The position numbers and the translations under genes are program-made. From contig CAJINV010000005.1 in assembly GCA_905178155.1 (NCBI GenBank), positions 2,817,804-2,881,803 of the forward strand: a DNA stretch of 64,000 bases, given 5' to 3'. The stretch comes from Amoebophrya sp. A120 (lineage: Eukaryota > Protista > Dinoflagellata). This document shows positions 13,401 to 59,210 of the stretch, in pieces. Under the pieces are notes generated by a model that was not told where the DNA came from, did not search any database, and saw only the letters and a list, made by a program, of their open reading frames with translations. The number at the start of each line of letters is the position of its first letter. Positions within the stretch are counted from its first letter, which is position 1.

Positions 13401-13853
13401 GCTTGGCGAGCGGATCGTCCTCGTCGATCTGCTTCTTCTTTGCCATGTCTATCAGCTCGCTCTTACACTCAAACCACCCTCCCCTCGCACTGACAGAAGA
13501 CGCGTCGCCGCCTATCAGCTCGCGGACGTGCTTTGCAAGCACTCGCAGCCACACTGTTTTGTTGGCGCAGTTGGCAAGACAGTATCGAGATCGGACGCGG
13601 AGTCTGGCCTGGGATGACTGCGCGACACCGAACCGGAACGCCGCCACCTCGAGATCCGCCGCGTCAAGTCTGCCGTCTCGTGCCCCAGAAGGATGACCAA
13701 ATGCACACAATTAGGTCAAAATCATCATGACCGACGATAGCTACCTCACTAGATAATTTTAAAAAAATTTTCGCTTTCGTTTCAAATTCTTAATTCGATA
13801 ACGATAACAGATTTTTTTTCACCCCCTGCACGTCTCCGCAACACTTTGCGAAA

Positions 13854-14906
13854 CTATTGCAGGAAAATCATCTTAGCGATGTCACTGGAGCGGACTGCAG
13901 TGTAGGTCCGGTAAATTTGTCAAACAGTGCAGGTGCTGGAGGAGCTTCTTGCATTTCTGCGTCTGCAACTGGTGCTTCTGGTTCTGCTGGTACAAGCAGA
14001 AGTCATCCAGGTGCTCCTGCTGCGTCCTCTTCAGCAACGACACTACAGCAGAATCAACAGCTCGACAAAAGAACGCAGGAGCAGTCACGACAGTCTTTTC
14101 TGAACCGACAGAAAAACACGAAGGTGGATCAGATGGCGCAGTTCTCAGACGATTCAGCATCTTCGGACTACGAGGCAATCGAGACCATGTATGGCGGGGG
14201 GCGACGTCGCGCTGGTATTAAAGGCGATAGGAACAAACGCAAAACCGATAGCAGGAATCCAGCAAATGAAATGACCGACACAAAAATGGAAGAGGCCGCG
14301 GCGCCGTCTTGCTCTACTACCGGCGAAACTGCAGCCCAAGGACCCACAACATTGAAATTGATCCAGAACGACAACGATGATGAAAATATACAAGAGGTCT
14401 GCGAAGTAGACAACACCGACCCGCAGCAGCAATTGTGCAGTTACGTCGCTGGAACTACTACAAATGCGCCCGACGACCAATCCGACTCTGACAGTGAAGA
14501 ACGCGAAAAACTCCGGATTCAGAACAAGGTCCTTGACGAATCCCACCGGTACGCGCGGGAGCTGTTCGGGTTTCCGGGGGATCGGCGGCGAGACCACAAC
14601 TTAACCCGTGGCGGCCGGAAACTTTGCCCGACCATGGCAAACCGGCAGGTCGCGTGCAGCATCGTGGAATTCTACGCCTGCGGCGGCGTTCTGAGGTATC
14701 CCTACGAAAACGCGACACCCCTCGCGCAGGACTTCCTGGCCAAGTTGCTCACCGCGTTGGAGCAAGATCGGTTTTCAGCGAAGGAAGCGCTGCAACACCC
14801 CTGGATCACAACGATCGACTTCCGCGATCAGCAGTACCAGCGAAGCAAGAAGTTGCGGAAAAAATTCTCGAAGTTGAGGACAGTGTATGGCAGTAGAACG
14901 TCCTGA
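13854..14906 (+). other. Duplicated copy of the kinase last exon (no upstream exons; likely artefactual)
   Basis: Translation identical to 6663-7715. Confidence 0.75.
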
Positions 14907-17070
14907 TTGGTCGTGTATCTTTCCGTGCATACTATTCGTGGCCTCGATTTTTTCTTGATGAAGATGAAGTTGTAGTTGGCATGAAGATGGGTGAGCGCAT
15001 TCACGCAGTGGCATTTTTCGTTTACGATTATTTGGCGCGCTTTTGAAAAATAAAGGGCCGATGCGTCGGTTTTGATGTTGCATAGCAGAAAGAAACGAAA
15101 GTTCCATTACGCGTACGAAACAAAATCGAGCATCACGAAATGCATGGACGACAAATTTTTCAGCTATATAAAGTGGTGAGTCCATTGTCGCGACGATTCT
15201 GATGGTTCTGCGTGAGCTTTATGCAATAGCAATACCATATTTTCCGCGCACGTGCAAAATGCGACAGTTTTACTCAGGCTGGAACGCTTGTCATGCTGAC
15301 TTCTAGGACCGGAGGGCAGGCAAGTTTTGTTATGCAGCGATTCCGCATTTGTACGTGTACAGGAAATTATTCAAGTTTCCTGTGGATAAGCTTGCCAGCA
15401 ATTACATACACGCGCCGCCGGATGATCACTATTTGGCTTCTGGCACTGAAATTTGAAAACATTTTCCGATGCATAATGGTGGCTATCTGTTTAGGCGAAC
15501 AAGGCTGCAACTCTTTGCTTTTAGCACTTTCGAGTGCACCCTTCGGCGCTTTGTTTTATCCACGTAAAGGCTCCTAATACTCAACTACTCGCCCCACGTT
15601 ATTTTGGATGTTTCGCCGTCGAGTACTCCTCCTTGATGCAGACGCGTTTTTTTTTTTTACTTTCCGCTCGACGACACACTAACACCACTACGCCTAAAGC
15701 CACGACTCAGTGTAGTCGTCTTCACATTGACTTACGCACGACACACATCTGAGAATAGAAAATTTTAGTTGATATCTGTCATTTCTAATTTTCTGAGAAT
15801 TCAAAAAAAAATTGCATCTGCAGCTACCTATCTGCATATGTTCTCCAATGATTTCAGCCTGCCATGTATTGAACAAGAGCTGAAAATGATTGTTTGTTCG
15901 GGCCTACTTTGGTGGTGGAACGCGACGCTACTGCTCACCGTTTTGTTAGTGCTACAACTTTAAAGAATTAGGACATTGTAAATGTTCAACAAGTTGAGAT
16001 ATATTTTTCTTTTTCCACATTGGACGCGGCACTTATCGTATTGTAGAAGCGTTTCGCGGTCCATCGTTGACTCAGTCACCATGGGCATGAATCTTCTCTG
16101 CGATAAAGATAATTCGTGCAATTTGTTCCAATCCTTTTGACGATTTTTTTCTAGCATCTGTTTCTAGGTCTAGCTTTGTAATTGTAATATGTTGGATTTT
16201 TGAAACGTCAGGTGTTCCTATTCTGGCTTATCCCACGTTTTTACTTTTTGTGAAACGCAACTGCAAGCATGCCATGCTAAGGGCATTTCATCATCCAATT
16301 TTCCGTATTCTATGTCGAAAAATGTCCGCAAAATCAAAAGCAAAAATGAAACCCAGAGCTCGTTGTCGTTTGAAAGAATGTGAATGAAAATTTGATTTAT
16401 TTGTAAACGATAGATAGTGACTCTGTGGCTCGTCTTCCTGCGAATCGTGGATTGATGATGAAGCTTGTGTTTACTAACTGCAGGCAAGAACAGAGTGATC
16501 CATCCTGTCTGTTGTGTTGTCTTCGTCTTGCCCCTGCTTGTAATTGAACGTGATTGCGCTCTTCAGAGAGAAATTTTCGAAGATCCTCGTTCTTGGAGAT
16601 CAGCAGATTGTCGTGGTTTTTTGATCTTGGAAGTTGCCGCTTCAGAAGATCCCGTCTTGCTAGTATTGTGTTATTGCCAATTTTATGCGAGTTATTCGTC
16701 CCGTTCCAATCTGCTTCGGCTCGGAGTCATGGTCTATTTTTTGCTGGATTGATTTTCCCCCGCCTGCACCTGCAATTGCATTCGGTCGTGCTCCGTGCAC
16801 GCAGTAAAATAATGTCATGATTCGTAAACATTGAGTCAGTTCAACATGGAGCCCCTAGAGGTACGATATTTTCGTGCAGGTTGCAAAAGCCTGCGCGACT
16901 TTTTTCTGGCATTTTTCTATTGTCTTTTTCCTACGCAAGAAGGTTCTGACAAATTTTCAGAAAGAAGAGGATGCGCAGGTCGCCGCAAGTCCAAAGCACA
17001 TCAACCGTGTGCTGCTGCTGCTCGGGCGGTACTCGTCTACAAACGACGGTCGAGGACCAAAAGCGGGGTC

Positions 17071-17137
17071 GGGGACGCAAGAGTGATGTCATACCGCAAA
17101 GAAATCCTCCTCGTGCTTCCCATCGTAGTGTGCTCGC
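17071..17137 (+). repeat. Long direct repeat, copy 1 of 3 (also at 9880-9946 in the duplicated block)
   Basis: ggggacgcaagagtgatgtcataccgcaaagaaatcctcctcgtgcttcccatcgt(agt)gtgctcgc. Confidence 0.92.
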
Positions 17138-17147
17138 GATCAAGAGT

Positions 17148-18338
17148 TTATGTTTTAAACGGTCGTTAGCATACAGAAGGGTGAATTCCCAGTGAATTTG
17201 TATTGCGTGGCATGATGCATGAATTAATCAGGTGCATGCGAAGAACACGGGGACAACATACAAGAAGCCAGCGCGCCGTGTTGATGGGCTGCTTGGCTGG
17301 TGGCGCTTCCCTCCTGTGGACGCTTGCCGCTTGTTGCCCAAAGTGGCGCACCTGGTGGACTGCGAAGCAACGCAGGTGGCTTGTGGCGGTCTTACAACAC
17401 GACGCTGCATGATCCGCCGACTCGATAGTGGCGGATCGACCGGGACGAGGGCCATGCCTGAAAAGGTGGCCAAATGTACTAGCTCAACATGTCAAAATAG
17501 AGAAGTCGCGTCACGGGTTGTGGCTGCCTCGGCTTGGATATCTGAAGACAGGTTGCTACGGATGCTAGCATCGCCTGCTTTGCTCTGTAAGTAACCTCTT
17601 CCCAGCTGTGTTCCTGCCTCATCTTGGTCGGTTCCTCTAGTAGTCTTCTTTGACGTGACCCCCAGGTCAGGAATTCTCTTGGTGAATTTTGGGGCTTTTT
17701 CTTTTTGTTAAACTTTTTGGAAGCCCCAAAACCCGGAGTTTCTCACGCGCTAGCGAATTTTGAAAATGAGCCGGAGGCCAAAATTCACCGGCGCCCTTTT
17801 CAAAATTCACCCCAAAACTCACCGGGCGCCCCTTTTCGACCGTGATACGCAAACTTTAGCGCAGAAAAGTGCTCAAAAAAGTGCACAGATAGGCCATGAG
17901 AAGGAACGCAAAGGGGGGAAAAGCGGAGTCCTCTGCTGCCCTAAGCCCGTCTGTGTTCTGCTGAAAATGCCGCAAGATTTCACGCGCCTGCCGGAAAAAT
18001 GCTTCAAAGCTCTCGGTCGGGTCCTTTCGTCCTTGCCTGCCTTCTTGCTTAGTTGTATGCGCTTCGCAGCCTTTATTTCTGGCGTCCTTGCCGCGGCTGC
18101 TGCAGTGCTCTTCTGCGAGAACGGGGAGGCGCAAAAATCTGCCCAAAGAACGGCGCCCGGGCCATGTCCTCTGGCTGCCCACTGCACAAAAGCCCGCGGC
18201 TGCTGCGCGGTGCAGGGCCTTCTACTTCCCAGAACAGGGCCAAGAGGGACAATGTCCCGGCGGGCTCATCTGCAATTTGGCATGCAAAATCCACTACAAA
18301 TTCACCACTTCTCATGCTAACGGGTGTTAAAGCTCTAG
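17148..18338. mobile_element. 1.2-kb non-autonomous TIR element, copy 1
   Basis: Ends ttatgttttaaacggtcgttagcat...atgctaacgggtgttaaagctctag. Flanked by tcaagagt/gcaagagt (8 bp, 1 mismatch). Inverted homologue of 18401-19588. Confidence 0.85.
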
Positions 18339-19659: not shown

Positions 19660-22600
19660 CACTTCAGAATTTCTCGTCCCCGCACAAGTTCACCTCTCGT
19701 CCCCGTCAGAAGCCGGGATATTAAAAACCCCAACCCCGCCCAACGAGACCCTCCTCCTCCGCCCTTCCGGCACCCCGAAGCAGCGGCCGGTGCAATGTTT
19801 TGCGCATTCGGAGTTGACGTACCGTATCAAATGCAAAAATGTCTGGGTCTGGAAGGTTGGAACTTGTGATGCTAACTTTGGATATATAAAAAAATCTGTA
19901 TTGCATGACCAGCAGGAGGAGTCCTGTTTGTGCTACGCGGGGAGGGCATTTGTCATGCGGGATGGGCATCAGGAAGGCCTCTAAAAATATGTGATGCTAG
20001 ATCATGCATTACAGACATCCCGAGTCATGCAAAATATGCATGACAAACCTGGTAACCTTCCAGACCCAGACATTTTTACATTTGATATACCAACGGTGCT
20101 GTCAACAGCGGCAGGAGCACTGCGTCTCCACGCTGTCCGACCCTGCGTTTTTCTACAAGGCCTGCTGCGAAGACCGGTACCTATCAAATGTAAAAATGTC
20201 TGGGTCTGGAAGATTTTGAGGTTTGTCATGCATATTTTGGAAGACTCATGATGTCTGTGATGCATGCGCTAGCATGACAGATTTTTGGAGGCCTTTGTGA
20301 TGCCTCTACCGCATGAGAAATGCCCTCCCCGGGTAGCACAAACTGGAGTTCTGTTGCCGGTCATGCCATGCAAATTTTTTTAGAGTCCAGAGACAGCATC
20401 ACAAGTTTAGAATCTTCCAGACCCAGACACTTTTGCATTTGATAGTACCTCGCGGTCAACGACGTTCCCGCGCACCTGGGAAATCTCGTCATATCCTGTG
20501 CAAAAGTGTCGTACTCGTATAAATGCAAGTCTTGCATTACAAATCTTTATCGTAAGGGAAATCCGCATTACAAATTTTCTCTCTTATGCTGAGAAAATTT
20601 GTAATGCATTTATACGAGTACGATACTTTTGCAGTTCACACGTCACCGCGCTGGTCGATATGGCATACATCGCGAAGCAAACAGACAGGATACTGTTGGC
20701 GCCAGTGGACAAAAAACTCTTTGGCCCGGTGTTCAGCGATTTACGAGACTGGTATAATCGCAACGGGGGCGCGCCGGATCTTCATGCTGGTAGTTCGCAT
20801 TCTGTCGGCAGCGACAAGGGTAAAAATAATATCAACGTCGAAAGGCTGATAGATGACGGTCTCTCCGAAAGCGATCCTGCAGCGCTGTGGCAGTTTCTGC
20901 GAAAAGCTAAAACATCATTGCAAAAGGGAACTGCAGCAACCGAGCACGGAGCAAACCAAGAGCAGGAGCGTCAGGAGGCCCTTTATTGGGCGAAGCGACT
21001 GTATAGGAAGCGATTTCGAGAGCGGGCTGATGTGAACCCCTTGGTGAGCCTGGTCGGTCAGAGACCAAAAACTAGCGAACAGGCGCATCATAATAATCAT
21101 CCTGCCGGTGCAAACAGGACGGCAGAAGGCAGACTTGAGGCAGCACAAGCAGCACGCTCGTCGACCAGCGGCCGTGGTCCTCGAGGAACCTACAGAGAAG
21201 CGGCACCCCTTCATTATCAAGCTCTCAAGGATCTCCCCGTGACCGCAAGCAATCTGAGAAAGCTCGCCCTCGCCTACGAGCAGAAAACCCAGAGGTTCCG
21301 TGCGGTGATTGGCCGGTCTTTTTTCAAGCTCGGCTGCCCGCAACTCCCCGTGGTCGACATCGCGGGCGGGGGTCGGGAGGGTCCGTTTCGCTTCGCCTTA
21401 GATCAACAGGGCGCCGAAACCAGTCCGGCGAAGCTGATTTTGATTTATCAGGGTTTGTACCACGATCACTCGCTGGACACGATCATGCAGCTGCACGGTA
21501 AAAAACAAATTCTCGCGGACAAAAAGACCAAAACCATGCTGGAGAATTTTCCGACGAAAATCTCCAGCAAGAGAAGTAGAGGCTCTACTACTTCAAAGAG
21601 GACTACTGGAGATCATGTTGAAGTAGACGTCGACCCGGATGAAGATGATTTTAATTCCTCAGACGAAGACACGGAAACGCAAAAGATTTCCTTCTCCGGC
21701 CACTTTCCGGATAACTACCCCGTGGGCGGAAGGGAGGAGATATCCACTGCAAAAGTATCTCACGACTGGCATCGGTTGCATACATACTGTATGAACCAGT
21801 TGCAATACAGCAATACAAATTTCATTTTTCCTAAATGTAAATCTGCAACCACCACGCAAACCATAGCTAGTACAACGGCACTTTTGCAATGCATAGGAGA
21901 CCATTGCACGCATGGAGAAGAAGATGGAGGAGGAGCAGAAGCTCGCGGAGAAGGATACTGAATACGACAGGACGATGAAGTCGCGGATTGACGAGATGGA
22001 GCTCCACTACATGCTCTTACGGGACCGGTGGGTCGCGAGATTTCCGCAAGTCGTCAGATTAACCGGCGAGGACGCAATTACTTTCTGGGATGAGATGGAG
22101 AAACCGATCCGATATCCTCGCGGAAATGACCAGAGCGGCGGCAATGAAAACGTGCAATTCCTGAAAAGAGCGATACTACGGAAGTACGAAGCGCTGTATA
22201 CTTCGCAAATAAATGCTTCATCAGCAGAGGCAAGACAAAAGTTCTATCACCTACTCTTCCACTCCAACCCCCCTGTTTCTCAGCTGAGAAATCTCTACCG
22301 CTTTCTGTACCACGACGACGCCGCGCCGTCGAGATTGTTACCTCCTGGGTTGGTCAAACCATTTCTGGTTTCCGAGTGCGGGAGTCCGGATTACGGAGAG
22401 AGTGGAAACTCGGTCGCTTTACTGAAATACGCGGAACGGCAGAACGAGTTTCTTTTTGGACATCAAGCAAATTTTCTGCAAACCGCTGCAGAAGAAGACG
22501 CGAGCAGAAATCACATGAAACGAGTGCGACACCGCGAACACGGAGCAAGTAAAAGCCGGCTTCTCGATCGGCTCAACAAGCAGCGCGTGAACCACCTGCA

Positions 22601-26303: not shown

Positions 26304-28487
26304 TAATGAACAGCCACGGAATTATCGACTATGTTAGGCAGCACTGAGACTAAAACTCAGTACTTCTTTCCATTTCTTCAACCCAGTACTTGCTGTAGAC
26401 TTGTCATCTTTCGGTTCTCGTACACCAATGCGTGCAACAGAATCAGAAGAACGAAATTTGCAGTATAATCCTGAAGATCCAGGCCTCCAGAGGGCTAAGG
26501 CACTGTAGCTGATGCATTCAGTTATATCAAATCCGCCCGGGAACTAATTTGATTTCAAATCAATTTCAAACTAACTTCAAAGATTTTGAATTTTCGGATT
26601 TTTGACCTGTAGTGTGATGTTTGATTTTGACAAAATTAGTCCATGGCATGAGAAGTACTTACCCTACTTTGCGCTGCCGGTTGTCCATTTTCCACAACGC
26701 CGACGATTGTCCACGCTGCTCCCAATGCTGCTTGTTCATCTCCTTTCCCTTCGGCGTGTCGCCCCGTTCTGCGAGCGTTACCGATCTATTGCCCCCTGCT
26801 CTCGCGCTTCACCACAAAAAAACACCGACCTGCTGCTGCTGTGCGCAGTATTGACCTCCGTGAACATCGACTGGAAACGGCGGCCGGCTGCGACTGGCGA
26901 TCGTCCATTCCCCCGCCAGGTGACCTCGACGCGCTTTTTTTTTCTCTACTTCCAGCGCAGGCCACGCAATGAATTTCGATAGAATTTGTTTTTTGAAAAG
27001 ATAAGTTCTAGGACCGCTAAAGGATAAACAGTCTTTTGAGGTTTTGCTCGCTCATCCGAAGAAGAACGGGTAGCAATGTGCTCCTGTACTGTCACGTCAG
27101 ACATAAGGTGGCTGAAAGTAAGTCTGCGCGCAGCTTGATGATGACCAAGCCACGCGTCGAGTCGTAGTGCCATTCATCACCCGTGAGAAACAGCAGCACT
27201 AGAACCAACCTCGAAATAATATAAAAGTTCATTAATTTGCAGGCACGGCTGCTATTTGCATTCTGAATCTCACCACAACATCATAAGACAAATAATCAAG
27301 TTCGAGAAAAGTAGTGTTGCCGTTGCCGAGTAAATTTCTAAATTGCTTTCACGCCCACAAGCACCACCAGGCAAAGAGGCCGGAGCCAGATCATCTGGGG
27401 CCTAGCGAGGCGAGAAAGTGAAACCGTGCGTCCCTGCAGTCCTTGTCGACTGCGTTCCATGATTTCTGCGAGACGGCAGAGAGTCGGCGCTCTCGTGATC
27501 TCGCTATCTGCTGTGCGATTCTGGGACGGGTATAACAAGTGGACTAAGAGAATAGTTCTAAGTAGGACACCACTGGAAGTAGAGCGTAGGTAGGGTTTTA
27601 CAAAAGTCAGCTCGCTGCTCAGGTTGGGGCAAACTGGTGCGTCTCGACATTGCACTTCGTCGCCGTGTAATGAGAAGGTGCCTGCACTATATAATTGAAT
27701 TAGAAAAGCGCGGCGCTGTTGCGCTTTGTGGGTCTCGTCGCCAAATTTAAACGCAGCGACGAGATGGTGTCAATTGCTAATCTGGGCAACAGTTGCGAAA
27801 CAGAAATGAAGAACAGCTTAATTTAGGTGGGGAGCGGAGAATAAACCTAAAGCTCTGAATCAATTAACTAGAAGCCGAAGCTTTTGACTTGCAGCAACAG
27901 CAGTGAATGGCTGTAGTCTTTATCTTTTCATCGAGCGAGAGTAAACATTTGCATTTCTAAAACACGGCCACTGGATATACAAACACTAGCTCGAGTCGGT
28001 CGGCGCAAAAGCATTGCACCCACGCAAAGCTCAGCAAGAGGCTAAGCGGAAAATAGTTCTAATAAATGGCGACGCAGAAAACGGCCGCTAGTATAGTAAG
28101 TTCTCTTGACTCGCTTAGGTCGTTTCTGTGCACCGTGGACTCAGCAAGACTGGGTGGTCTTGTAGAGGTTCAAACAGATATATTTATATACTCTGACTGC
28201 AAGTCCAAGTCACATCGGCAAGCGACAACCACTAACAAACAACGCAAATACAAATAGGCAGATGATTGGCTCTCTTCAATCGAGTCAATCTCAATTCAGT
28301 TTTAGTACTATTATCAAGTTTGTCATGCACATTTTGATAGCTTTTTTAGTTTTTCAAGATAATCATCCATCATACAATTGCGCTACATTTATCGGCATTG
28401 CACAGCTGGCTGCGCAAAACATTTCTACTTCATGATCTTTTCCACAAACCGAATCAACAACATTTCCACTCCACAACCACAGGAGAC

Positions 28488-30849
28488 CTAGGCGTCGTCC
28501 CCCTCCTCCACCAAATCGCTGCCACCCTGCTGGTTGTTTCCGTTTCCACCGTTGTTGGCGGCCGCCGGGGGCGCCCGCTTGATCGCGGCCTCCTTCGCCT
28601 GCAGAAAGATGGCCAAAATCTCCTTGGAGGTGGTCTTCAACCAGGTGCAGTTGCCGTTCAAGGTGTGCACACCGACACCATTCACCGCCCACAACTTCTC
28701 GATCCCCTCGTACTTCTTGTACCACTCCGTGAGGTCCTTCAGGGTTGCGGTGGTGCTCGCTTTGAAGGCGTCGACCTCGGTTTTCGCCGTGGTCAAGAAA
28801 CCCAGCGCCTGCTGCTTCTGCCACATCTGCACCGCAGTTCCGAGGTGCTCCCGGGCGGCAATGTGGTCGTCGTGCGCCAACTGGGTAACCGCGAACGCAA
28901 TGGCGTTTTTCACCTCGGTGATCTGCGCGATAGAAGGCGAGCGGCGCAACAACTTGACGACCTTGGCGTGCGACGAGATGTAGGACCGCTCCAACAAAGC
29001 CGCACCGGAGATGATTTCCATGGTACCCGCCGCGAGGGCGGGGGCGGGGTTCTGCAGGTTTGCGTTCACGACAGCCCTGCAGGCCACGCTGTATTCGTCC
29101 CACTCCGCAGACTGCTTTTCGTTCACCTGCGCACCGAAACCGGGGCAGTTGCTGCGGACGGATTCCAAGTGTTTCGCCCAGTCGATGTTCAACAGGTGGG
29201 CCGCGACGTACTTCTTGTTCAAGGAGAGAAATTTGGTGACAAATAATTTGATCTCCTTGTTCATGTTTTGCAGCGTCTGAAACTGCGCCTCGTTGAGAAG
29301 CGTCTTGGTCTTGTTGATAGCAGCGGTGCGATCGGTTGGGGCCATCAAGATGAAACTCACGATGGGCACAGAGTCGTCCTCGGCCGCGATCGCACTCAGG
29401 ACCTGGGGGATCTCAAAGTCGAAGTCCGTCACCGTCTTCTTCTCCGCCTGCGTCAGGGCGACGTTGGTCAGGACATGCTGCCGCAACAACTTCACCGTCA
29501 AGTCCTTCTCCACCCCCGTTGCAGCGACGGTCACGAGGTCCTCCACAGACTTGTAGAACTTCCCGTAGCATCGAGTGCAAAAATATCGCACCACGAGAAA
29601 TCGCATGACTGCGCATCACTCTTTTGTTCCAGCATGACAGATCTTGCGTTTTCTTCCGAGAGAATTTGTCATGCGATTTCCGTTAGTGCGATAATTTTGC
29701 AATGCTTATGTTGGTGGATTCTGGCTTGTTTTGGGGATTTTGCTGCCAGGTCTTGATTCTGTCCTTCACCTCCGGCATGGAGTTCTGCGTCAACAACTCG
29801 TAGTGCTTGCCGATGTTGTCCTTGATGTATTTGCGGGTGCTGATCCTGTGATTTATTTTTTCATTATTTTCGAGTTGGGAGGCGTATTGCTATCTTGCGC
29901 GAAGCGCGTATCGAAATCAGGTCCCATAGGCCACAGGTTGCAACACAATTCGCACAGTGCGAAAAGCAAAGCGCTGCACAACACTGAACCGAATCCACCA
30001 TAATATACGTCATGCAAAAATTTTATCAGGTTCAGGGCGGCCCAAGCTGCAAGATAATCCCATCTATAATCAGGTCGGCGTCGTATCTCGCCAGACAACA
30101 CACACAAGAAAATATGTAAAATACCAGGCCACGACTTTGTCGATCTTGTCGAACGCCGGCGGCTTGTTTTTTTCTTCCTGCTCGAGGTCCTTGTTTCCCG
30201 CCACGGCTTTGTCGTCCTTTTTGGAAACGTCCGCAATTTTCAACTTCCCCTTCCCCCGGTTTTCCATCTCGTACTTCTGGTTGGGCTTGCACAAGTTGAT
30301 CATGCTGGCCACCAAGGTTTTGGTCAGCCGGACCCGCATCTCCGGGAGGGGAAAGCCGAGGTTGGGCTGGTTGAAGGACTGCTCGACGTTTCTCAGCGCC
30401 GCATAGGAGGTGGTCTTTTCGATCAACTCCTCGCCCTTCTTGACCACGTCTTCCGCCTGCTGCTTCGTCCAGGTCGCCGCCTCATCCCGTTTCAGTTTGA
30501 AAAACCCCGTGTTCCACGAGCCGACATCATCGCGGGTTGCCAAGAAGACCGCTTTGTCCTTCGCCACATCGTTGTTTTCCGGATCGTCCGCCGCCTTCAT
30601 CGCGTCCAATAATTCCCGCGCAGTATTCCGCTGGTCCTTGAAGTCGCGCTTGATGTTCTGCGTGTTGTAATTGCGGCCGCGCACGAAGTCCTCCGCGGCG
30701 TCTCGGACGTTGGGGTCGTCCATGTTAACCGCGGGGAAGGTCCGCTGAAATTTCTCAATCTCCGTTAGGGTTAAGCGGCGCTTCTTCGATTCCGGCTCCG
30801 CCATCTGCTTGGCCATGAACTTCATGGCCCTCTTGTTTGACTCGCTCAT
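28488..30849 (-). CDS. Unknown ~650-aa mostly helical protein carried by the 12.3-kb element
   Basis: Approximate exons: 30849-30125, 29845-29709, 29563-28488. The joins VVAW|ISTRK and PEST(N/Y)|GKFYK are in frame. No recognisable domain. Confidence 0.75.
29569..29708. mobile_element. Degenerate family B-like introner
   Basis: IR tgcaaaaatatcgcac...gtgcgataattttgca; DR cgtag/tgttg; removal is in frame. Confidence 0.75.
29846..30124 (-). other. GT-AG intron
   Basis: tg|GTATTTT...CACAG|g restores the Trp codon and the frame. Confidence 0.75.
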
Positions 30850-32498
30850 TCTTGAAGCCGGGTCGGTGACAGGAACAAAAGCTGAAGAGAGAAGGAGAAG
30901 TAGTTGCGGCAACGTCAGTAGCTGTTGATCTGCTGTCGTGTCGACGAAAAAGTTGCAGTCGCAGCGTGCTCTCGTCTTCTGCGGCGGTGCGAAAGGTGCA
31001 ACGCCTTGGAGATCAAGCCTGCCGGGACAGAAACGCTTGACAGAAGGCCGTGGGGGTGGTCTAGTTTTGTTCTATAGTTTCAAAGCCAGGTGCTTCGGTG
31101 CGTGCGGTGGTCAGAATACACTGACGGCGCGCGAGCTCTTATCACTGAAACCACTAATACAATGAATGCAAAACACCAGCCAAGTGAACCCTTTATGAGT
31201 CACAGCTTTGCTGTCGCAATTTGCAGGCTACATCGATATGACACCTGATGCGATTTTTGCGTTTCTTCTTTTGCAGAATTCGACCGGCGATCGAACTTTC
31301 CGAAAACGAATCAAGGGCGCCAAATTTGTGTTGCGGGAGCAACTCCTTTCCCTCGCTCTGTAGTCCGTGAGGCCTTTTTTCGTTTCCCTCAAATAGCTTA
31401 GAACTCGAAGTAAACTCAACACTACCGAGCTGCTGGTGCTGCGCTGCGTACTAAAGAGCCTTCGCAACTCACAAACTTCGTGCTTTGGTGGGGGCGAACC
31501 TCTAGTATGCTTGCCGGGACCTGAAATAAAAAAGGAAAACCAACACCCCAGGGGGTCTAGGTGTTGCAACAAAGCTCCTCCCTCGAACCCTCGAAACGCA
31601 ATGTCGTTGTAGACGACACGGAAAGCTTGGCGGACGCAGAAAAAACAGGCCGACGTGAAAAAACAAAAACCGAGCACAACCAACGTTGCGCGAGCGCATC
31701 GCCACAACATGGAGTCAGGGTGGCGCCCCTCAAGCAGCTGTCTTTTAGTGGGTTTCTAACTAAGCGTAAGCGGGGCCGCTGCGTCGTCAGGAGCAGGGCC
31801 AAAAAAAAAAGACCGATGGAAAAGGCACGAGCCCAGGAGAGCGAGCAGCCCCCGGCGTCGCACCACGCAGTAGGCACTTTGTAGCGCCGAGGCAGGGCGA
31901 AAAGGCACAGGGCGCGCCACCTTTTCGTGACCTAATACGGGGCGAATTTTGGCACTTTGCCTGTTCCACCGCCCTAGCGGCGACGCAAGGTCCCCGACAA
32001 TCTTGCCGTAGAACGCTGCCGCTGGGCCGGCTGGGGGCGACGCGCTTTTGCCCGAAACACGACCTAGAAAGCTACTTTGCTGTTATGGGGATGGGAGAAA
32101 GCGACAAAAATGTCGCCGCTGTTACTGCATCAAGAGACGCAGTGCCGCCGTAAACGGCCGGCATCTAAGGTGCGGGGAGGCCGCTACTCTTCACCCAAAG
32201 AAGAAAACTTTTGAACCCATCTACTGGGGGCGCCTGCTTTTCTGAAACCCAGAACCCCGACCACCGCAAGCAGGCACCCCCCTGCCCTCAAGAGACTCCA
32301 GAGCCCCCAAAACCGGCAGGCCCGGCATCTAGAATGTGCGCTGCGATCCGTAGCGGCCCGAAGCATACGCAGCAGGCGCTCGAGCCGTCTGCGCCAGCCC
32401 AACAAAAATTATCGCGGCCGGCGCGAAGCGCCGGCCCCACCAAAAAATACAGGTCCCGGACGTGCCGCGATCCGACGGTTGAAATTGGGCGGGCCAAA

Positions 32499-32615
32499 GC
32501 AATCCACCGTTTGAAGTTGGTTCGAAAAAGGCAATCCGGCGTTTGAAGTTGGTCCAAAACTGGCAATCCGCCGTTTGAAGTTGGTCCAAAAGTGGCAATC
32601 CGGCGTTTGAAATGG
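32499..32615 (+). repeat. 32-bp tandem repeat (~3.6 copies)
   Basis: Unit gcaatccg(g/c)cgtttgaagttggtccaaaa(c/g)tg. Confidence 0.85.
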
Positions 32616-32933
32616 ATTCAGTCCAAAAGCAGTCCAAATAAGTCTGAACCAAGATTCTAAGTAGGCGGATTTTTTTGGACTGCTTTTGGACTCTTTTTGA
32701 CTTTTTTGGATTTTCCACGGATTGCTTCGATTCAGCTCAGAAAAAAATACACAAGTTCCAAACCTCCGTCTATCGAAAGAAGGACAAATTTGCTTCGTTA
32801 GCTCATTGGCAAGCACACAGTCAGTGAGGGAACGAAGCAACTCCGTCTGTAGTGCGAAGCTGATAGCTAAACCCTGAAGGCGACAGTTCCGCTACCGCTG
32901 CTTGCCAACCTACAAATCACAAAACTACTAGCA

Positions 32934-35900
32934 CTACACCAGCGGGCTCAAGAACTGGAGCTCGGCCTCCGGAATTTCGCAATACGATAAAACGTCCGCC
33001 CGCTGCACCTTGTCTAGCTCCTGCTGGGTAATGGTTTCCACCGTGGCGAGCAACTCCTTCACCATTTCGCCGTATTGGGTTTTGAGTGTCTTCTGCGCTT
33101 CTGCGCTGGCTTTGTAGCTGCTGTTGAGGCGGATGCGGGTGCTGCGCTGGATGATGAAGCTCTGCATCCAACACCAGCCGAGGAGCAAACAGGTGCACCA
33201 CATCATATCCTTCAAGTTATCGCGGGTGTAGCCCAGCCGCCGAACTCCTCCCTTCACCGCTTGGAAAGATCGAAAAGCATTCAAACCCGCGACAGCAGTA
33301 TAGAGTTTTTTGGTACGCCCCTGCGCCGTGCATGTAAGGGACATGCTTAGGTTGTTTTTCGCAGTGTGGACGGACGTACCGTCGGCAATTTTCCACTCCC
33401 CCGCCGGCAAACACCCCTCCACCCAACTTTCTGCGTCTTCGGATATCTTGTTCCGCTTTCGCACCAGTTCTCGTGCCTGCTTATCGGTCAGGACAAGGTA
33501 GTTGCTTCCAACGGATGCGGCGGGGTCGTCCGCTCTGCTGGATTCGTTTGTGGCGGCGAAGGTGCTCTTCGCCTCGCCCTTTGCCCCTTCTTTCCGGAAA
33601 GCAGGATGCGTTCGGCTTCCGGCATTCGCAATGCCGTCTTTCTTCTGTTTTTTCGATCCACCGTCGGCCCACCGCTCGTTTCCAAGTAAAGGTCGGGAAC
33701 TCGCACTCGAGGACGACGCACTACTGCTGCTGCCGGCTACTGTATCCGCACCCCGCTTGTTGTTCGCGGCCACACCTTCAAAGGCGGCATTGTTCCACGC
33801 CCGCATTCCTGCTGCCCCATGCGTTTTGCTTTGGACATTGAGCCCTCTGACGCCGTTCGCCACCTTCGATAGGGTCGCGGGGGCATCGCCTTCAACCCCC
33901 CGGAGCTCCCGCAGCAGCTCCTGTAGGTGCTCGTCTGCGCCGCTCTTGCTGTCTTGCTTTGGCCGCGGGTTCACTTCCACCTTCTTCTGTTCCTGGAGCT
34001 GCACCTTTTTCGAGGGATCAAAAATCTCGCCGGCGATGGTCCAAAGTCCGGCCGGCTCCAATCTCGCCGACTTGATGCAGTACTTGGTCTTCGCGTGTTT
34101 GCTCCTGAAGTCGAAATCGCTAAAAAAATAGCGGTCGCCCGGTCTGCCCGGCGCCGGCTTGAAGGAGTTTTTGTTTTTCCCCTGCGTCAAGCGGACTAGT
34201 CGCCGCGCTGTAAATTTTTTCGGCTTCCGCAAAACCCACACGACCAGAAGCGCCTCCTCGGAGCCGTCGGAGTTTGTGAAGACGATGAGCAGGTGCGTCC
34301 CGGTTCCCATTTGGATCTGCAGGTCGTCCCAATCGTAGTCAAAGTTTGCAGCCTGCTGCGCCTGCTGCCCGTCGCCAGCCTGCCCTTCGTCGTCCGGGGT
34401 TTCTTTTGCCGCCTTCTTCGCAGCCGGCTTGTGCAAACTGGTAACCCTGGCCAGGTCCACCGCGGTTCGCACCAGGTCATTGGGCGGCTTCCGCCACATT
34501 TCCACGGCGTTGAGGGAGAATTGCTGTGCCCGCGGCATAAACAGCCGCTCTTTCACCGCAGCTGCCCGCTCCTTGCACGTGCCGTCCTGCCACTGTGTCC
34601 GCACCGCAGCCTTGACGCGGTCGTAGAATTGCAACTCCTCCCCCAGTACTATTTTTCTTGCGTGGTTGCGGTCCGCGTTTTGAAAAAAATGCTCCTTGCG
34701 CTCGTCTTTCCAGGCTGCGAACCCTTCCTTTGCGGCCTTGTTGTGCTCCGCCGCCTCCACGACGTAGACCTCCCAGGCGTCGGCGCCGAGCGTTTCGGGG
34801 TTGGCGCTCTTGTTGGCCTCTGCTATGGGCATCGGCGGCTGGTCCCCGAAACCTGTCATGAGATCTGCGCGCGCAAATTCCTGCGGAATTTTTACGCGGC
34901 ACCGGGCTAACTCCCAGCCACACCGCTCGAAGGAATCAATTTCGTCCAACTCCGTCAGCCTCTCTTCGGTTTGCCGCGCCAATGTGCGCCCGACGTTCTC
35001 CGCGTCCAGCGCATCTACCCCCTTCGGGTTTCGGGAATCCTGCATGCGCTGCAGTGTGGCGTGCTTGCGTTCCACCGGCATCGTGGTCTTCGAAATTTGC
35101 TCTGCTGCGTCCGCCACCTCATTCATAAAATCCACGGCGCTACTGAAGGGAAGGACCTGCGGCCGCACGCTCGCCTCGTTGGCGTGGTAAAGTTTGCAGA
35201 TTTCCTGGAGCTGGACGAGGGCGATGGAGGCGGGGTTGTCGGTCTCAAGCTTCTGCGGGTACTTTGCAAATTGCTTCAAGTAGGCACCGCGCTCGTTTTC
35301 CGGCAGTTTGCCATACCCACGGAGAAACTGGAAGTGCTTGTGGAAGGGAGTCTTGACAACACGGCTGTAAAAAGCGGCACCCAAAACCTGCAACGACTGT
35401 CGCCCGGCGGCGCTGTAGCGTTGTATCATGTCCGCCGAGATTTTTGGCTCCACCATTTTCAACAAAACCCCCAACGTGTCCACGTGCAAAAGCTCCTCCG
35501 CGGCGTCCAGGTCTGCGTAGAACCGGTCGTGGCAGGCTTCGTCGCCACAGGAGGCGTTTTCGATCTTTGCCACATGCCCCTCGTAGTGCTCGATAGCTCG
35601 ACAAAGGACGCAGACCACAACCATCGACCCCGCAACCTCTACACCAGCCCACTCACTTCCGGATCAATACGCTGCAAAAGGATCGCACTTGTCCTTGTGG
35701 CAACTGCGCTTGCATTACAGATTCAAATTATTTTCGCAGAAACATACAGGAAATTCAAACTTGTCATGCTGATTCAACGTACACGTAGGAGAGGCGGGGA
35801 GATTTCAATCTGTCATGCATGATTTCCACTCCGTCCGATGAGTATGAATATGCATTGCGACGCGCGCGACCCTTTTGCAAACGATAAGACAAGTGCAGCG

Positions 35901-38014
35901 ACGACTTGACCAGGCACCCGAGCATCTCCGCCACCACAACCCGCTCCATGTCGGACCCCGCGCGAATCCACCTACTGAAACTTGGGGGCCTGATTCCCCT
36001 TGTCGCGGTCGCCAGAATCCCCATCGCCATCGCCTTCACCTTCTCACTCCCGCCCCAGCTGCTAAGCTCCTCGTCCGAGACGACAACAGCAAGACTCTTA
36101 CTCCCATCGATGCTGATTTTGTTGAGGAGGAGGTCCGACAACGAGCGGTCTTTTTCTGTTCCCGAATCTGCAACCCGTGCTGCGCCGTAAACACCTCCGG
36201 CGAGAAATTTCCGCAGCGCCGCTGTTTGCGGCGTCATGCTGCTACCGGGTAGCTCGGGCGGTTTGACAAGCGAGAAGCGCGATGGCCCGGCCGGAACCTT
36301 CACCCGCTTCGGAAACTCCTGCCCCATGTTCGACTGGATGGCGAGCTGGTGCTTCCCGATGAGTTTCCCGGTAACAAAAACCTTCTTTTCCCACTTCTCC
36401 GTGTCGATGTTGCAGCGCAAAAGGAAAAGGGTCGCAGCCTCTTCCAGGGCTGTACCGCACTCGTGTTCCTCGCAATGGCTCGGCAAATGCACCAAGTGAT
36501 GGGCGGAGCCGCTTCTGACGAATTCCTTTGGTGCGGCAGCTGCGTGTTTGGCCTGGCACATCAGCCCGGTCGCCTGGTGCGTCAAATTCATGTCCGGCCC
36601 GCGCAAATATGGATGGAAAAATAGCACAGCATGCTGGGAAACCACACCTCTTCGATTGTTTAGAGCGTACTCATGCCAAAATGGCGTGGGCTTACTGATA
36701 CTATCGCTCTTTTTGCTTGGTACAACAACAACGACAACACAACTCCAGATAGGACCCTGGCGCGACGGGAGCGTAGCGCATGTAAAGCATCGCGCCACTA
36801 ATCATCTTTACATAAGTCATATAATCAAGCATCACAAGCTGGGCACTTTCTTCTCCCTTTCCCTTTTTTGGAAAAAAAACGGAATTTGTCATGCGTTATG
36901 GCATGATGAGTGGGCACCATTCCACTCACCTGGTTCCCTTTTTTTACCTTAGATCTGAAGACGAAGAAGCTTGTCACGCAAGCACTGTAGCATGAGCGGG
37001 TAGTGGTTCTAATTGATTCCGCTTCTCTAGGATCGCGCCAGAATCAATACGCATGACAAAATCGAGGAGGCATCTTGTTCCAGCATGCTGCTTGAAAGAA
37101 GTGTGTTCGGATAAATCGCTCGACGTGTTGAGCACGAGAAGGGGGGGAAACTTTTCGGCATGCGACAAGACGTTCTTCAAATCCCGCACGACGGTGTCCG
37201 CTACCCGTTGGGACGGTATGCGATTGTCCTGCAGGAGAGTCGCGATCTGCTTATCCTCATTCTTCAGGAGACCCTCCTGAACCACTTTCGAAGGCTGGAG
37301 GATTGTTGACGACGGCAGCGTGACCGTCTTCCAAGTCTGGCCCGCCTTCCAGGACAGGGTTACTATTGTGACGAAGAATTTTGCAGCGCGGTCGATGATC
37401 GTCAGCTTATTCGCGCCGACAGCTTTGCCAAGGCTGTCGACGCCCAATCTCGCCCCACACGGCGTCGCGTCGGACATGTGCGTCAACACCGCCGACCTGT
37501 TTCCACCACTGCTGATTATTTTCCCTGCTTCTCGTTCACCTGCTTTTTTTGCAAACAGGGCAGCCCGCTCCCATTGGACGTCGACGCGTGCCTCCCCGCT
37601 GAAGAACGGCTCCACCGTTCGATCTCGCGTCGCATCGGGAGGAAGATCGACCTCCATGTCGGCGACACCCCCGGGCGAGTCCGAGGTCGCTGTCCGCTCC
37701 GACATGGTCTGGTTGCTGCCCGACTGAAAAAACTCTCCTCCCCCAATAGCTGCACCGCCGGTATCGCTTGCCGCAGAAAACTCGTGCTGATCACCCCAGT
37801 CCAGCAGCAACGCTGCATCGCCCCCGCCGGTGGACACGTTTGAAAAGACATCATCGACGCCGCCAGAGGTCCCAGGCACAGCTCCCGACCAGGTAGAAGA
37901 TGCTGAAGGCGAGGCGGAAATATTGTTGTTCCAATTTGTTGACGCATCTCCAAGTTCGTCGAACGCAAAAAAGTCGCCCTGCAGCTCTGCAAGCTGTGCA
38001 GCCGCTTCGCTCAT
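32934..38014 (-). CDS. Putative hAT-like DDE transposase, ~1,450 aa, two non-canonical introns
   Basis: Approximate exons: 38014-37114, 36602-35887, 35660-32934, in frame with no internal stops. Ordered motifs: VLTHMSDATP, LVLNTSSD-x-GPD, HCEEHEC (CxxH), SFSRW, TTMPVERKHA. Lies within TIRs and a TSD. Confidence 0.72.
35666..35886. mobile_element. Degenerate family B-like introner in the transposase gene
   Basis: IR tgcaaaaggatcgc...gcgacccttttgca. Removing the element plus 5 nt joins SLHLS|GSEWAG in frame. DR is decayed. Confidence 0.7.
36608..37113. mobile_element. Degenerate introner (tat...ata) containing a nested 234-bp insert
   Basis: cagcatgctg lies near both ends. Insert 36798-37031 is flanked by atcgcgcca twice; without it the intron is 263 bp, the size of family A. 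Removal plus 5 nt gives SSD-C-GPDMN in frame. Confidence 0.62.
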
Positions 38015-39308
38015 GTTGTTTACCGGTCGTCGCCACTATCGAAAAGAACTAGCACGTAACAGCGGAAACCTGTGGCGTGGAGGAGGAGTACACACACACG
38101 AAGGCTGCAGACGGCGCTAGTACGTGCATACGAGCCTATGCGAAAACGAGTTCTTTTGTTTTGCGAGTCCGAGTTCAAACTTTGCCGACCAAATTTGCGA
38201 TCCTCTCCTGTGCGTGCTTTGTTTTTGTATCGATTGCGACACTTCGCTCAGGCCAATTTGTAAAATGTCTCGACTCCGACGAGAGAGCGCGACTACTAAT
38301 CAGCTCGACTAGTACTTCTGCTTAACAGCATTCGCTGCATCATACCAGGCAACTCTTTTCAAACTGGAACCACTTTCGGAGTACGTGCCAAACCGTGGGC
38401 TTTGTTGCTCCCTGTCAATGCCGGAAGCGGAACTGAATACAAACACTTGCTTCCGCTGCATAAAAACAAGCGCAGCAAGATCATGCAAAGCAGCTACACA
38501 GAATCGGAGGCAAGACTTCTGAGTTCGCATATCATATCGGAGCCATGCCATGCATACAGTTCAGGTTTTTTTTTCTTTCTGCATCCTCTCCGGAGGGTCG
38601 TTCCGGCTTCGAAAAAGCCGAAACTAGCCTACCGGCAGAACTTGTCCATCCAGTGATACAGGCTAGAGCTGCAGCACCACTTCATCCGACCGCGCGCAAC
38701 GTCCTTCTGCTCCCATGAAGTCGAATTTTTCAATTTTCAAAATCTTTGAAGTTAGTTTGAAATTGATTTGAATTGATTTTTAGGCCGGGCTCGTTTGCGT
38801 TAACATTCAGGATCAGGACCGGAAGCAGCAGAAAATCATCAGATACAACTCCCTGCTGTTCATCCGCATCATGTAGCGTTCTTCCTAAGGTTTTTTTCGC
38901 AGGTAGAGTGCCACCCAACGAGAGTGAGTATTGGCCCTGAGCTCTTGCAGTCCCAGCAGGGGCCCCGGGACTAACACACTAAAAAGAAGTACCCGCATTG
39001 TTCGTTCTTGTTAAAGTAAGAAGTGAAGACACTTGACCTTGAGACTCAGAAATCTAGTGCCTCCGTGAAGGTGCTGTTGGCCGCCTCGTACTTGCGGGAA
39101 GCCAACAGTTTTCATGGATCTCACTGCATGAAAGTGAAACTGAAAGTTCGATTCGACGCGCATAGCTGTTTTCCACCTGTTGCTACATGTATCACGCATA
39201 CTGCTCTAAACCTAATCGTGACTTCCCCGACTACACCAACTTTCTTACTTCAACATCACCCATGAAAAATATTGAACAACATCGAAAAACACAATTGCCA
39301 ATGCGAGT

Positions 39309-53700: not shown

Positions 53701-54436
53701 AGCAGCAAAGGAAGTGCAATTTTTGCTACGCGGAGAGGGTATCTGTCATGCGGAATAGGCATCGCGAAGCCCTCAAAAAATCTGTGATGCTAGGGCATGC
53801 ATCACCGACATCATCGTGGGTCATGGAAAATATGCATGACAAGTCTCAGAATCTTCCAGACCCAGACATTTTTACATTTGATAGCGCCTTTCCCGGGCCC
53901 CAGAGGCAGGTCAGAGTGGAGATCAGTATTACCAGCAAATTGAAGCCAAACGCGCCCGAGCTGGCGGTCAGGAAGAGGAGCACAATCAGTGGGTTGTATC
54001 AAATGTAAAAATGTCTGGGTCTGGAAGATTGCCAGGTTTGTCATGCACGTTTTCCATGACCCATGAGGTCTGGCATGTAGGACATAGCATAACAGATCCT
54101 GTGAGAGTTCTATCATGCCTATCCTGCATGAGAAACTGCCTCTCGATTACGTCAAAAGTGGACAGCTTTTGGTAATGATGCAACACAGACTTTTACATGA
54201 TTCAGATTTAGCATGACAAGTTGCATTCTTCCAGACCGAGACATTTTTACATTTGATAGGTTGGTTGACCGCGCAATGTCCATGGTAACCAGAGTCGAGC
54301 TGAAGCCCGCGAGCAAACCGGCGACCTGGGCGAGCTTGTCAAAAACCATCATAAAATAGTTCAGCTCGTACTGCCGGAGCTCCAGAGACTGCAGGTGAAA
54401 CCCCGTGAGCACGTTGCCCTTGCCGGCTTGCAACAT
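50784..54436 (-). CDS. Four-TM membrane protein, Orai-like (~195 aa), three introns
   Basis: Approximate exons: 54436-54259, 53991-53884, 51330-51263, 51014-50784. TM1 VAGLLAGFS resembles Orai SALLSGFA, but the canonical pore Glu position is not conserved as Glu. Three further hydrophobic helices follow. Confidence 0.72.
51015..51262 (-). other. GT-AG intron
   Basis: gtg|GTATTTT...CTGCAG|gtc is in frame. An alternative donor 3 nt upstream is also in frame. Confidence 0.7.
51336..53883. mobile_element. Family A introner expanded to 2.5 kb by a nested insertion
   Basis: Both 31-bp TIRs are intact; DR gcgcc; join GPGKA|LLGDD. Confidence 0.92.
51396..53671 (-). mobile_element. 2.3-kb retroposon-like insertion (TSD TTGGATT, apparently 5'-truncated, short ttcaa-type tail)
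   Basis: ttggatt at 51389-95 and 53672-78. The minus strand starts mid-ORF (Pro/Lys/Ala-rich) and ends ...cttcaattcaaattc. No TIR and no RT motif seen. Confidence 0.65.
53997..54258. mobile_element. Introner, family A
   Basis: TIR present; DR ggttg; join RSTN|PLIV. Close homologue of 2130-2397. Confidence 0.95.
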
Positions 54437-58495: not shown

Positions 58496-59210
58496 TAGTC
58501 CGGAACTAGGACCGGAGTTACATTCTCCCTCTCCAGAAACGGGAGAAAACCGCACAAATCCGACATAGTCCGCAACTCGGACTGAAAATAAATGTCCCTT
58601 CTCCAGATCGGGGGAAAATAAACAGGAGAAATCAAACGTAGTCCGAAGCTAGGACGGGAACTCAAATCCTTCTTCTCCAAACCGGGAGAAATCACGAGAA
58701 ATCCAAACAAGCCCGAAACTTCTAGGACTGGAAACAAAATCACTCTCCTTCTCCGGAACGGGAGAAATCTGGAGAACTCCAACCTAGACCGAAACTAGGA
58801 CCGGAAATAAACTCAATTCTCCCTCTCCGGAACGGGAGAAAACAGGAGAAATCCAACCTAGTCCGAAACCAGGACTGGAAATAAAATCACTCTCCCTCTC
58901 CGGAACGGGAGAAAATAGGAGAAGTCCAACCTAGCCCGAAACTAGGACTGGAAATAAAACCACTCTCCCTCTCCGGAACGGGAGAAATCAGGAGAAGTCC
59001 AACCTAGCCCGAAACTAGGACTGGAAATAAAACCACTCTCCCTCTCCGGAACGGGAGAAATCAGGAGAAATCCAACCTAGCCCGAAGCTAGGACTGGAAA
59101 TAAACTCTCTCCCCCTCTCCGGAACGAGAGAAATCAGGGGAGACCAATCATAATCCGAAACTAGGATTGAAAATAAACTCTCCCTCTCCAGAACTGGAGA
59201 AATCAGGAGG
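58496..59210 (+). repeat. 73-bp minisatellite, ~10 copies
   Basis: Unit tagcccgaaactaggactggaaataaaaccactctccctctccggaacgggagaaatcaggagaagtccaacc. Units start at 58859, 58932, 59005 and 59078. Confidence 0.92.

Follow-up and report, generated by a model that had tools for sequence, protein, structure and literature searches.

An introner-split, two-gene element in Amoebophrya sp. A120 likely encodes a divergent cut-and-paste transposase

We analysed a 64,000-nucleotide stretch of the genome of the dinoflagellate Amoebophrya sp. A120 (GenBank assembly GCA_905178155.1, contig CAJINV010000005.1, positions 2,817,804 to 2,881,803, forward strand), which we call the window and number from its first letter. 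At 26522-38803 it contains an element of 12,282 base pairs (bp) that is bounded by inverted repeats and carries two genes, here named A and B; this observation was confirmed. The element is intact and single-copy. It is likely a cut-and-paste transposon of the DDE kind, from an Amoebophrya lineage not described so far, and gene A likely encodes a transposase that Pfam does not recognise.

Inverted repeats and a 7-bp duplication bound the element

The element is flanked on both sides by CATTCAG, which occurs on the + strand of the window at these two positions only (26515 and 38804). When 720 boundary pairs around the inverted core were compared, CATTCAG was the longest flanking direct repeat, for which approximately 0.04 occurrences would be expected by chance. 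The two halves of the 37-bp core (26554-26590 and 38736-38772) are 100% complementary, and in the self-BLAST listing of the window they pair only with each other. The outermost 19 nucleotides (nt) of the two ends, aligned without gaps, are identical at 13 of 19 positions, and both ends begin with TTA (TTATA and TTAAC). The left core is composed of short TTCAAA-type repeats, and repeats of this type in the inverted ends are likely binding sites for the predicted transposase. The boundary features are as follows.

26515-26521, no strand: left copy of the target-site duplication, CATTCAG, 7 bp, from the repeat search and boundary-pair test
26522-26590, + strand: left terminal inverted repeat, an imperfect 19 nt starting with TTA and then the perfect core at 26554-26590
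38736-38803, − strand: right terminal inverted repeat, ending GCGTTAA; its end position was matched independently by a copy with a different flank
38804-38810, no strand: right copy of the target-site duplication, CATTCAG, 7 bp, from the repeat search and boundary-pair test

An earlier note on this DNA, made from the sequence alone, had proposed a 12.3-kb element with a perfect 37-bp inverted core, and the CATTCAG pair, the complementary core, the boundary-pair test and the independent end at 38803 confirm both. The same note gave the duplication as 7 bp, or 8 bp with one mismatch. The 7-bp length stood: no other length puts the ends in register, and an independent copy of the end terminates at 38803, for which reasons we rejected the 8-bp reading.

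The element sits between two host genes on the + strand; the RNA contig of the left gene ends at 26503, and that of the right gene, which encodes a DnaJ domain, begins at 39054. The inferred empty site contains no U1, U6, A-box or B-box motif, no tRNA was found in the 64-kb window and no Rfam match at the element ends. A low-threshold ARAGORN tRNA call at the empty site, which would need a 343-nt intron, was set aside as implausible.

Gene A reads as one gene split by two degenerate introners

The gene A model joins three open reading frames (ORFs) of 300, 238 and 909 codons into a protein of 1,447 residues without a stop codon.

37115-38014, − strand: exon 1, 300 residues, with a low-complexity N terminus without a zinc finger, D182 in MSDATP (codon 37471-37469) and D300 (codon 37117-37115)
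36604-37114, − strand: predicted intron 1, a degenerate introner that follows immediately on the D300 codon; homology gives 511 nt
35890-36603, − strand: exon 2, 238 residues, with C344xxH347 (36474-36463) and R511-W512 (35973-35968), the latter within the invariant ATRGIRPPSFSRWIR
35664-35889, − strand: predicted intron 2, a degenerate introner, 226 nt by homology
32934-35663, − strand: exon 3, 909 residues, with the end of a predicted helical insertion domain, E736 (VERKHA, codon 35072-35070) and two conserved C-terminal blocks

A Markov coding score, trained on the other ORFs of the window, followed three successive frames separated by non-coding gaps at approximately 37100-36600 and 35900-35640. 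The inverted repeats in both gaps were unequalled in 1,000 shuffles. Direct repeats alone are insufficient to place the junctions because many in-frame cuts exist, and the junctions given here are those indicated by homology.

Searching with exon 2 yielded 2 matches among 1.84 billion representatives, and an alignment search added a third homologue among 7,996 scored candidates. No other homologues were found. All three come from the EukProt gene models of Amoebophrya sp. AT5.2 and carry no functional name: P0003 (g750.t1), P0001 (g6092.t1) and P0002 (g816.t1). P0003, with 1,508 residues, is colinear with exons 1, 2 and 3 at 52, 54 and 37% identity, and is 45% identical to gene A over 1,389 aligned residues. 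This colinearity supports the fusion of three ORFs into one intron-split gene of approximately 1,450 residues that the earlier note had put forward. P0001 lacks the region from the second aspartate to the CxxH motif and P0002 begins after it; these gaps are probably gene-model errors. Single-sequence searches with residues 10-420 of ORF3 and 141-307 of ORF1 returned nothing, although the collection contained P0001-P0003, so these blanks are weak. The last approximately 700 residues of gene A hold two blocks that are conserved in all four sequences.

Across junction 1, P0003 reads NTSSDRGSDM, which implies a 511-nt intron and the sequence SSDRGPD in gene A; the SSDxGPD junction proposed earlier is thus supported by SSDRGSD in the homologue. 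At junction 2, homology gives LHL-SGSEW and a 226-nt intron. Alternative AT..AT cuts of 508 nt (intron 1) and 223 nt (intron 2) are in frame and would each add one residue; in intron 1, the choice between the 511- and 508-nt cuts (37114-37117) decides whether there is an extra residue beside the predicted active site. Non-canonical intron boundaries are normal in Amoebophrya (PMC7789003). At position 37245, a contig of sequencing run X1 has T where the window has A, a difference that would turn Ile257 of gene A into Asn and may be an assembly error or a variant within the culture.

Conserved motifs suggest a transposase core

In the gene A model, D182 (D1), D300 (D2), C344xxH347, R511-W512 (RW) and E736 follow one another in this order. 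A C/DxxH motif between D2 and E defines a group of five superfamilies, namely hAT, P, MuDR and Kolobok together with Dada (PMC9587614, PMC3706591), whose target-site duplications are 4-10 bp long (PMC3706591). The histidine of this motif touches the scissile phosphate in Hermes, where it sits at the start of the helical insertion domain (PMC7780238). The element shares two features of this class: D, D, C/DxxH and E are ordered and conserved, and the ends are defined and flanked by a 7-bp duplication. When gene A was compared with P0003 in 15-residue windows, the best conserved were those of RW (15 of 15) and E (13 of 15, tied with one other), against 45% overall, with the D1 and D2 windows in the next tier at 12 of 15 each. 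D1 is conserved in both homologues that extend over it; D2 and CxxH are covered by one homologue, which keeps them; RW and E are kept in all three; FSRW is found in 4 of 4 sequences. The comparison with P0001-P0003 and the ranking of windows bear out the D-D-CxxH-RW-E order and conservation on which the earlier note had built.

AlphaFold2 runs on one exon piece and on the P0003 core gave low-confidence models (pLDDT 37.9 and 38.6), which have a strand-strand-strand-helix-strand pattern with D1 just past the first strand. With these models, Foldseek returned no match at E 0.001, VIA-align none with a Z of at least 8, and no transposase was among the matches listed. In the ESM Atlas, residues 140-370 of P0003 matched an unnamed fungal cluster at 0.91, and the five named sets, at 0.79-0.82, were all RNase H-type transposase domains (two P-element and three hAT), which we take as a lead only.

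Further ends and a shorter relative are found in sequencing runs

Copies of the element were judged from contigs of sequencing runs and not from a whole-genome assembly. The kind of run X1 is not on record, and its even cover of all bins is like that of genomic DNA. Run X8 is spliced across a host intron and, in the pieces listed, is identical to the host genes, and so behaves as RNA of the same strain. Positions 26854-38765 form one X1 unitig of 11,912 nt with a depth of 42.7, like that of the flanks (41.9-45.2), which indicates that the body of the element is single-copy. At the left end, 26561-26883 corresponds to a shared X1 contig with a depth of 68.6.

26561-27762, no strand: left subterminal non-coding region, which run X1 also holds in a shorter, diverged relative, with approximately 96% identity over 26561-26883 and 82-84% in pieces further in

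A 1,481-nt X1 contig aligns with 26854-27762 as four pieces, of which the three listed have approximately 82-84% identity, and then jumps to 31896. The short relative thereby shares the left 1.2 kb and omits 27763-31895, including gene B. It is probably non-autonomous, because no second X1 contig among the matches listed covers gene A at an identity of at least 80%. At each breakpoint of the skip (27755-27763 and 31883-31891) there is a copy of a 9-nt near-repeat with one mismatch, as expected for a microhomology deletion.

Further element ends are present as loose-end rows in runs X1 and X7. One contig, seen in X7 and X8 (depth 83 and 92), aligns to 38746-38803 with 7 differences; beyond that it runs on into another flank, which begins GTAGATC. 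In X8 it starts with TAGATC, followed by 22 nt beginning with TT and then by the 58 nt that match the element end. This contig probably marks insertion at a second site, where six bases of a 7-bp duplication are visible, and a perfect 8-bp duplication is excluded; the interpretation is post hoc, from two loose-end rows and part of the contig, with a rough chance of less than 1 in 100 for the 6-mer match. Another X7 contig, rarer at a depth of 7.8, carries the match inward as far as 38729; the abundant contig may therefore have arisen by splicing from a longer copy, or may be a mini-element of its own, 80 bp long. Depth in these contigs is not copy number. The abundant transcript possibly carries the first 22 nt of the relative and both duplications as well; the sum of 22, 58 and 7 is 87 nt, a multiple of three, so a relative may be spliced from host RNA leaving an in-frame remnant. 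The search for other copies suggested by the earlier note thus recovered other ends and a short relative, but no second full copy among the run contigs.

Among the matches listed for the RNA contigs of X7, X8 and X9, one 208-nt piece lies on exon 3 of gene A (depth 2.7), and none crosses a gene A junction or lies on gene B, which has no bearing on expression. The raw RNA runs X4 and X5, both seemingly of another strain, had no reads on the element. No related loci were found in metagenome, viral or prokaryote contigs.

The ends, the duplication, the open exons, the homology and the further ends are direct observations; from here we infer fold, splicing, catalysis and recent activity. Gene A would be transcribed from the right end inward, and its two old introners would be spliced out of the transcript. 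The enzyme may then bind the repeats within the inverted ends and cut at the TTA termini by means of D182, D300 and E736 together with H347. Insertion with a 7-nt stagger, followed by repair, would create the duplication. By analogy with Hermes, the RW motif suggests hAT-like hairpin formation on the flanks, and shorter relatives with the same ends could be moved in trans.

Gene B and the region between the genes

Gene B lies on the same strand as gene A. Its three exons, of approximately 240, 49 and 360 residues, add up to 649 residues with approximate junctions, in line with the second gene of about 650 residues that had been noted before.

30130-30849, − strand: first exon, approximately 240 residues from MSESNK; 3′ boundary approximate
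29704-29850, − strand: middle exon, approximately 49 residues; boundaries approximate
29576-29701, no strand: intron 2, a multi-copy introner with a 34-nt inverted repeat (X1 depth 346 in its bin versus 43)
28488-29570, − strand: last exon, approximately 360 residues, without a convincing family match; 5′ boundary approximate
32467-32692, no strand: four 32-bp tandem repeats with TTTGAAGTT, then a hairpin, between the two genes and repeated elsewhere in the genome

Intron 1 of gene B has no significant inverted repeat (reached by 154 of 1,000 shuffles). PHROGs, NCBIfam and PDB gave nothing noteworthy for gene B; large protein collections were not searched. A match to PF13641 (E 1.7e-4, with 22 bits where the cut-off is 27) was taken as chance. 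The short relative lacks gene B, so that gene is most likely cargo or an accessory that the element can do without. The tandem repeats at 32467-32692 match the terminal core at 16 of 18 positions, a likeness to the ends that is not exceptional. As a decayed internal end, 32467-32690 was rejected: its tile score of 28 is level with ranks 21-23 of 423.

Alternative readings of the element

Several observations weigh against a DDE transposon. No second full copy at an identity of at least 80% was seen in run X1. Pfam gave no match for the gene A exons or for P0001-P0003 in a search up to E 10, in which HMMER filters discard most matches above approximately 0.1; NCBIfam gave no noteworthy match for gene A, and PDB sequences none. 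The named ESM Atlas sets score below 0.9, and for exon 3 (ORF3) the Atlas returned unnamed clusters and a Plavaka set at 0.85, again only a lead. Several non-catalytic windows of gene A also score 12-13 of 15, and with 33 acidic positions invariant in the core of so small a set, it is motif context that decides which residues are taken as the triad. The spacings are long: D1-D2 118, D2-C 44, D2-E 436, H-R 164 and W-E 224 residues, compared with 66, 21 and 107 for D1-D2, D2-C and D2-E in ISCth4 (PMC7780238), and 68 and 176 for D1-D2 and D2-E in Dada-U6_DR (PMC3706591).

The alternative that survives best, although we consider it improbable, is that gene A is a domesticated or dead-end gene derived from a transposase, and that genes A and B are passengers within the ends of a non-autonomous family moved by another enzyme, in the manner of Pack-MULEs. 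It would account for a single-copy body whose ends and left 1.2 kb recur without genes A and B, for the old degenerate introners in both genes, which imply long residence, and for the lack of a DNA-binding zinc finger in gene A. However, the catalytic motifs are among the best-conserved windows, three homologues exist in another Amoebophrya genome with 55-69% identity to P0003, and the core repeat and the duplication are perfect.

The earlier note also saw in the element a candidate mobiliser of local non-autonomous elements; for the abundant local introners this is not supported, and we think it very unlikely that the element is their autonomous partner. The local introners have TATC..GATA ends. 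Of the 7 tested, 5 have direct repeats of 5 bp and one of 4 bp; in one, with inexact coordinates, the repeat is not clear, and none has 7 bp. Published data agree: in file 8 of the PMC12130899 supplement, 22 of the 32 A120 families considered (of 58) have a duplication call, all of 2-6 bp and none of 7, lengths that rest on our own interpretation of its columns, and none is classed as hAT. The octamer TATCAAAT, with which the commonest local introner family starts, also occurs at 26525, three bases inside the left end, but there it is out of register, is absent from the right end and is the sole link to the element, and the 37-bp core finds only its own partner in the self-BLAST listing. Also in favour of such a role are the abundant transcript, in which only the final 58 nt of a relative and perhaps its initial 22 nt are present although the rarer contig reaches further in, which may mean intron-like splicing, and the report that introner repeats begin with TTA in one Amoebophrya strain (PMC7789003). 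The abundant family of approximately 260-bp introners, with TATCAAATG ends and 5-bp duplications, occurs at 2130-2397, 19825-20087, 20182-20444, 53997-54258, 63396-63647 and other sites, several of them within coding exons.

Least probable of all is that gene A is not a DDE enzyme and that its motif order is coincidental in a lineage-specific protein carried by a repeat-bounded segment: the lack of a sequence-family match and the many invariant acidic residues to pick from would allow it, but five motifs in the expected order with conservation peaks on four, the strand-strand-strand-helix-strand pattern with D1 just past the first strand in the low-confidence models, the P-element and hAT RNase H sets of the ESM Atlas, and the placement of gene A within inverted ends all argue otherwise.

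Other features of the window

A 7,190-bp tandem duplication (3215-10404 and 10406-17595; 99.99% identity) has the only N of the window between its copies; it is probably a scaffolding artefact and possibly a very recent duplication. A long tandem array at 58454-59212 has a unit of approximately 73 bp and copies that are about 80% alike.

Implications for the spread of introners

Using profile searches, Farhat et al. (2021) recovered two putative transposases from one Amoebophrya strain but none from the second, and concluded that transposase-driven spread of introners was ruled out (PMC7789003). With the element described here, an intact transposase-like gene missed by Pfam is present in an Amoebophrya-type genome and has relatives in the gene set of another strain, which makes an argument from the absence of transposases weak. 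The element suggests that such enzymes were overlooked in these intron-riddled marine parasites, and gene A and its homologues supply a profile for repeating the search. An intron placed directly after the codon of a predicted catalytic aspartate also provides a sharp test of how precise non-canonical splicing is.

A wider proposal, doubtful as it stands, is that the C/DxxH transposases of syndinians include a lineage deep enough to form its own superfamily beside hAT and Dada, and that the element is the first of its members to be delimited. The spread of Amoebophrya introners, in their tens of thousands, would then be due to the missing enzymes of sister families with other ends and 4-5-bp staggers, overlooked through their divergence and their own splitting by introners, and a short relative of the element would already be spliced from an abundant host transcript. 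The element alone does not explain the introners.

Comparison with known transposon superfamilies

In Hermes, a hAT transposase, the RW motif lies in the insertion domain; RW is not known as a P-element motif. An N-terminal BED zinc finger is usual, though not universal, in hAT transposases, and hAT termini follow the consensus (T/C)A(A/G)NG. The element shares with hAT the order D-D-CxxH-RW-E, with RW placed as in Hermes, and inverted ends. It differs in that gene A has no BED finger (its first cysteine is residue 186), in its termini TTATA and TTAAC, which do not fit the consensus, in approximately 700 extra C-terminal residues with two conserved blocks and in spacings longer than those of Hermes. 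The exon pieces and P0001-P0003 gave no match at E ≤ 10 to the hAT domains of Pfam listed in PMC5751038 (PF05699, PF04937, PF14291 and PF14372). In Repbase, assignment to hAT requires placement inside a hAT tree or PSI-BLAST convergence, and 7-bp entries are mentioned (PMC4455052); hAT duplications are 8 bp, or 5, 6 and 7 bp in hAT5, hAT6 and hAT7 (PMC12730594), so the duplication length is that of a hAT group. Motif order, RW and the 7-bp duplication agree with the hAT-like label of the earlier note; the Pfam domains, the BED finger and the terminal consensus do not. The element may be hAT-like in its working, but because these three tests failed, we do not file it under hAT.

Three other superfamilies of the C/DxxH class share some of its features. 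Dada has 6-7-bp duplications, proteins of up to 1,402 residues, close to the length of gene A, and members in the alveolate Perkinsus; however, it lacks terminal inverted repeats, whereas the element has a perfect 37-bp core and imperfect termini, it carries a CCCC finger before D1 and a C-terminal CCHC finger, neither of which is present in gene A by cysteine positions, and it inserts in tRNA and snRNA genes, of which the empty site gives no signal (PMC3706591). Kolobok Kol0 has two genes and inverted ends, but Kolobok duplications are TTAA, its termini are RR..YY rather than TT..AA and its KolX protein is cysteine-rich, whereas gene B has 5 cysteines in 649 residues (PMC9587614). In the ESM Atlas the P element scored 0.80-0.82, including the best named set for the D1-CxxH region (0.82), again only a lead, and neither the gene A pieces nor P0001-P0003 matched the THAP, GTP-binding or RNase H domains of P elements in Pfam. 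Kyakuja has 7-bp duplications like the element, but CA..TG ends without inverted repeats (PMC12730594).

A literature search that did not extend to Repbase Reports or subscription journals, and that took in Amoebophrya and the Syndiniales as well as dinoflagellate introners and transposases, turned up no account of the gene A family, and only Amoebophrya homologues were found, which supports the earlier suggestion of a divergent, possibly undescribed family. With its unusual spacings and long conserved C terminus, the element is a candidate for a new DDE lineage. The 7-bp duplication and the second gene, presented earlier as novelties, were overstated: hAT7 of rust fungi combines a 7-bp duplication with an extra TET/JBP gene in its TET+ families (Kojima 2025; PMC12730594), although gene B has no TET/JBP match, and Dada is a further precedent (PMC3706591). 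The 7-bp duplication, the second gene and the length of approximately 1,400 residues each have a counterpart among known systems.

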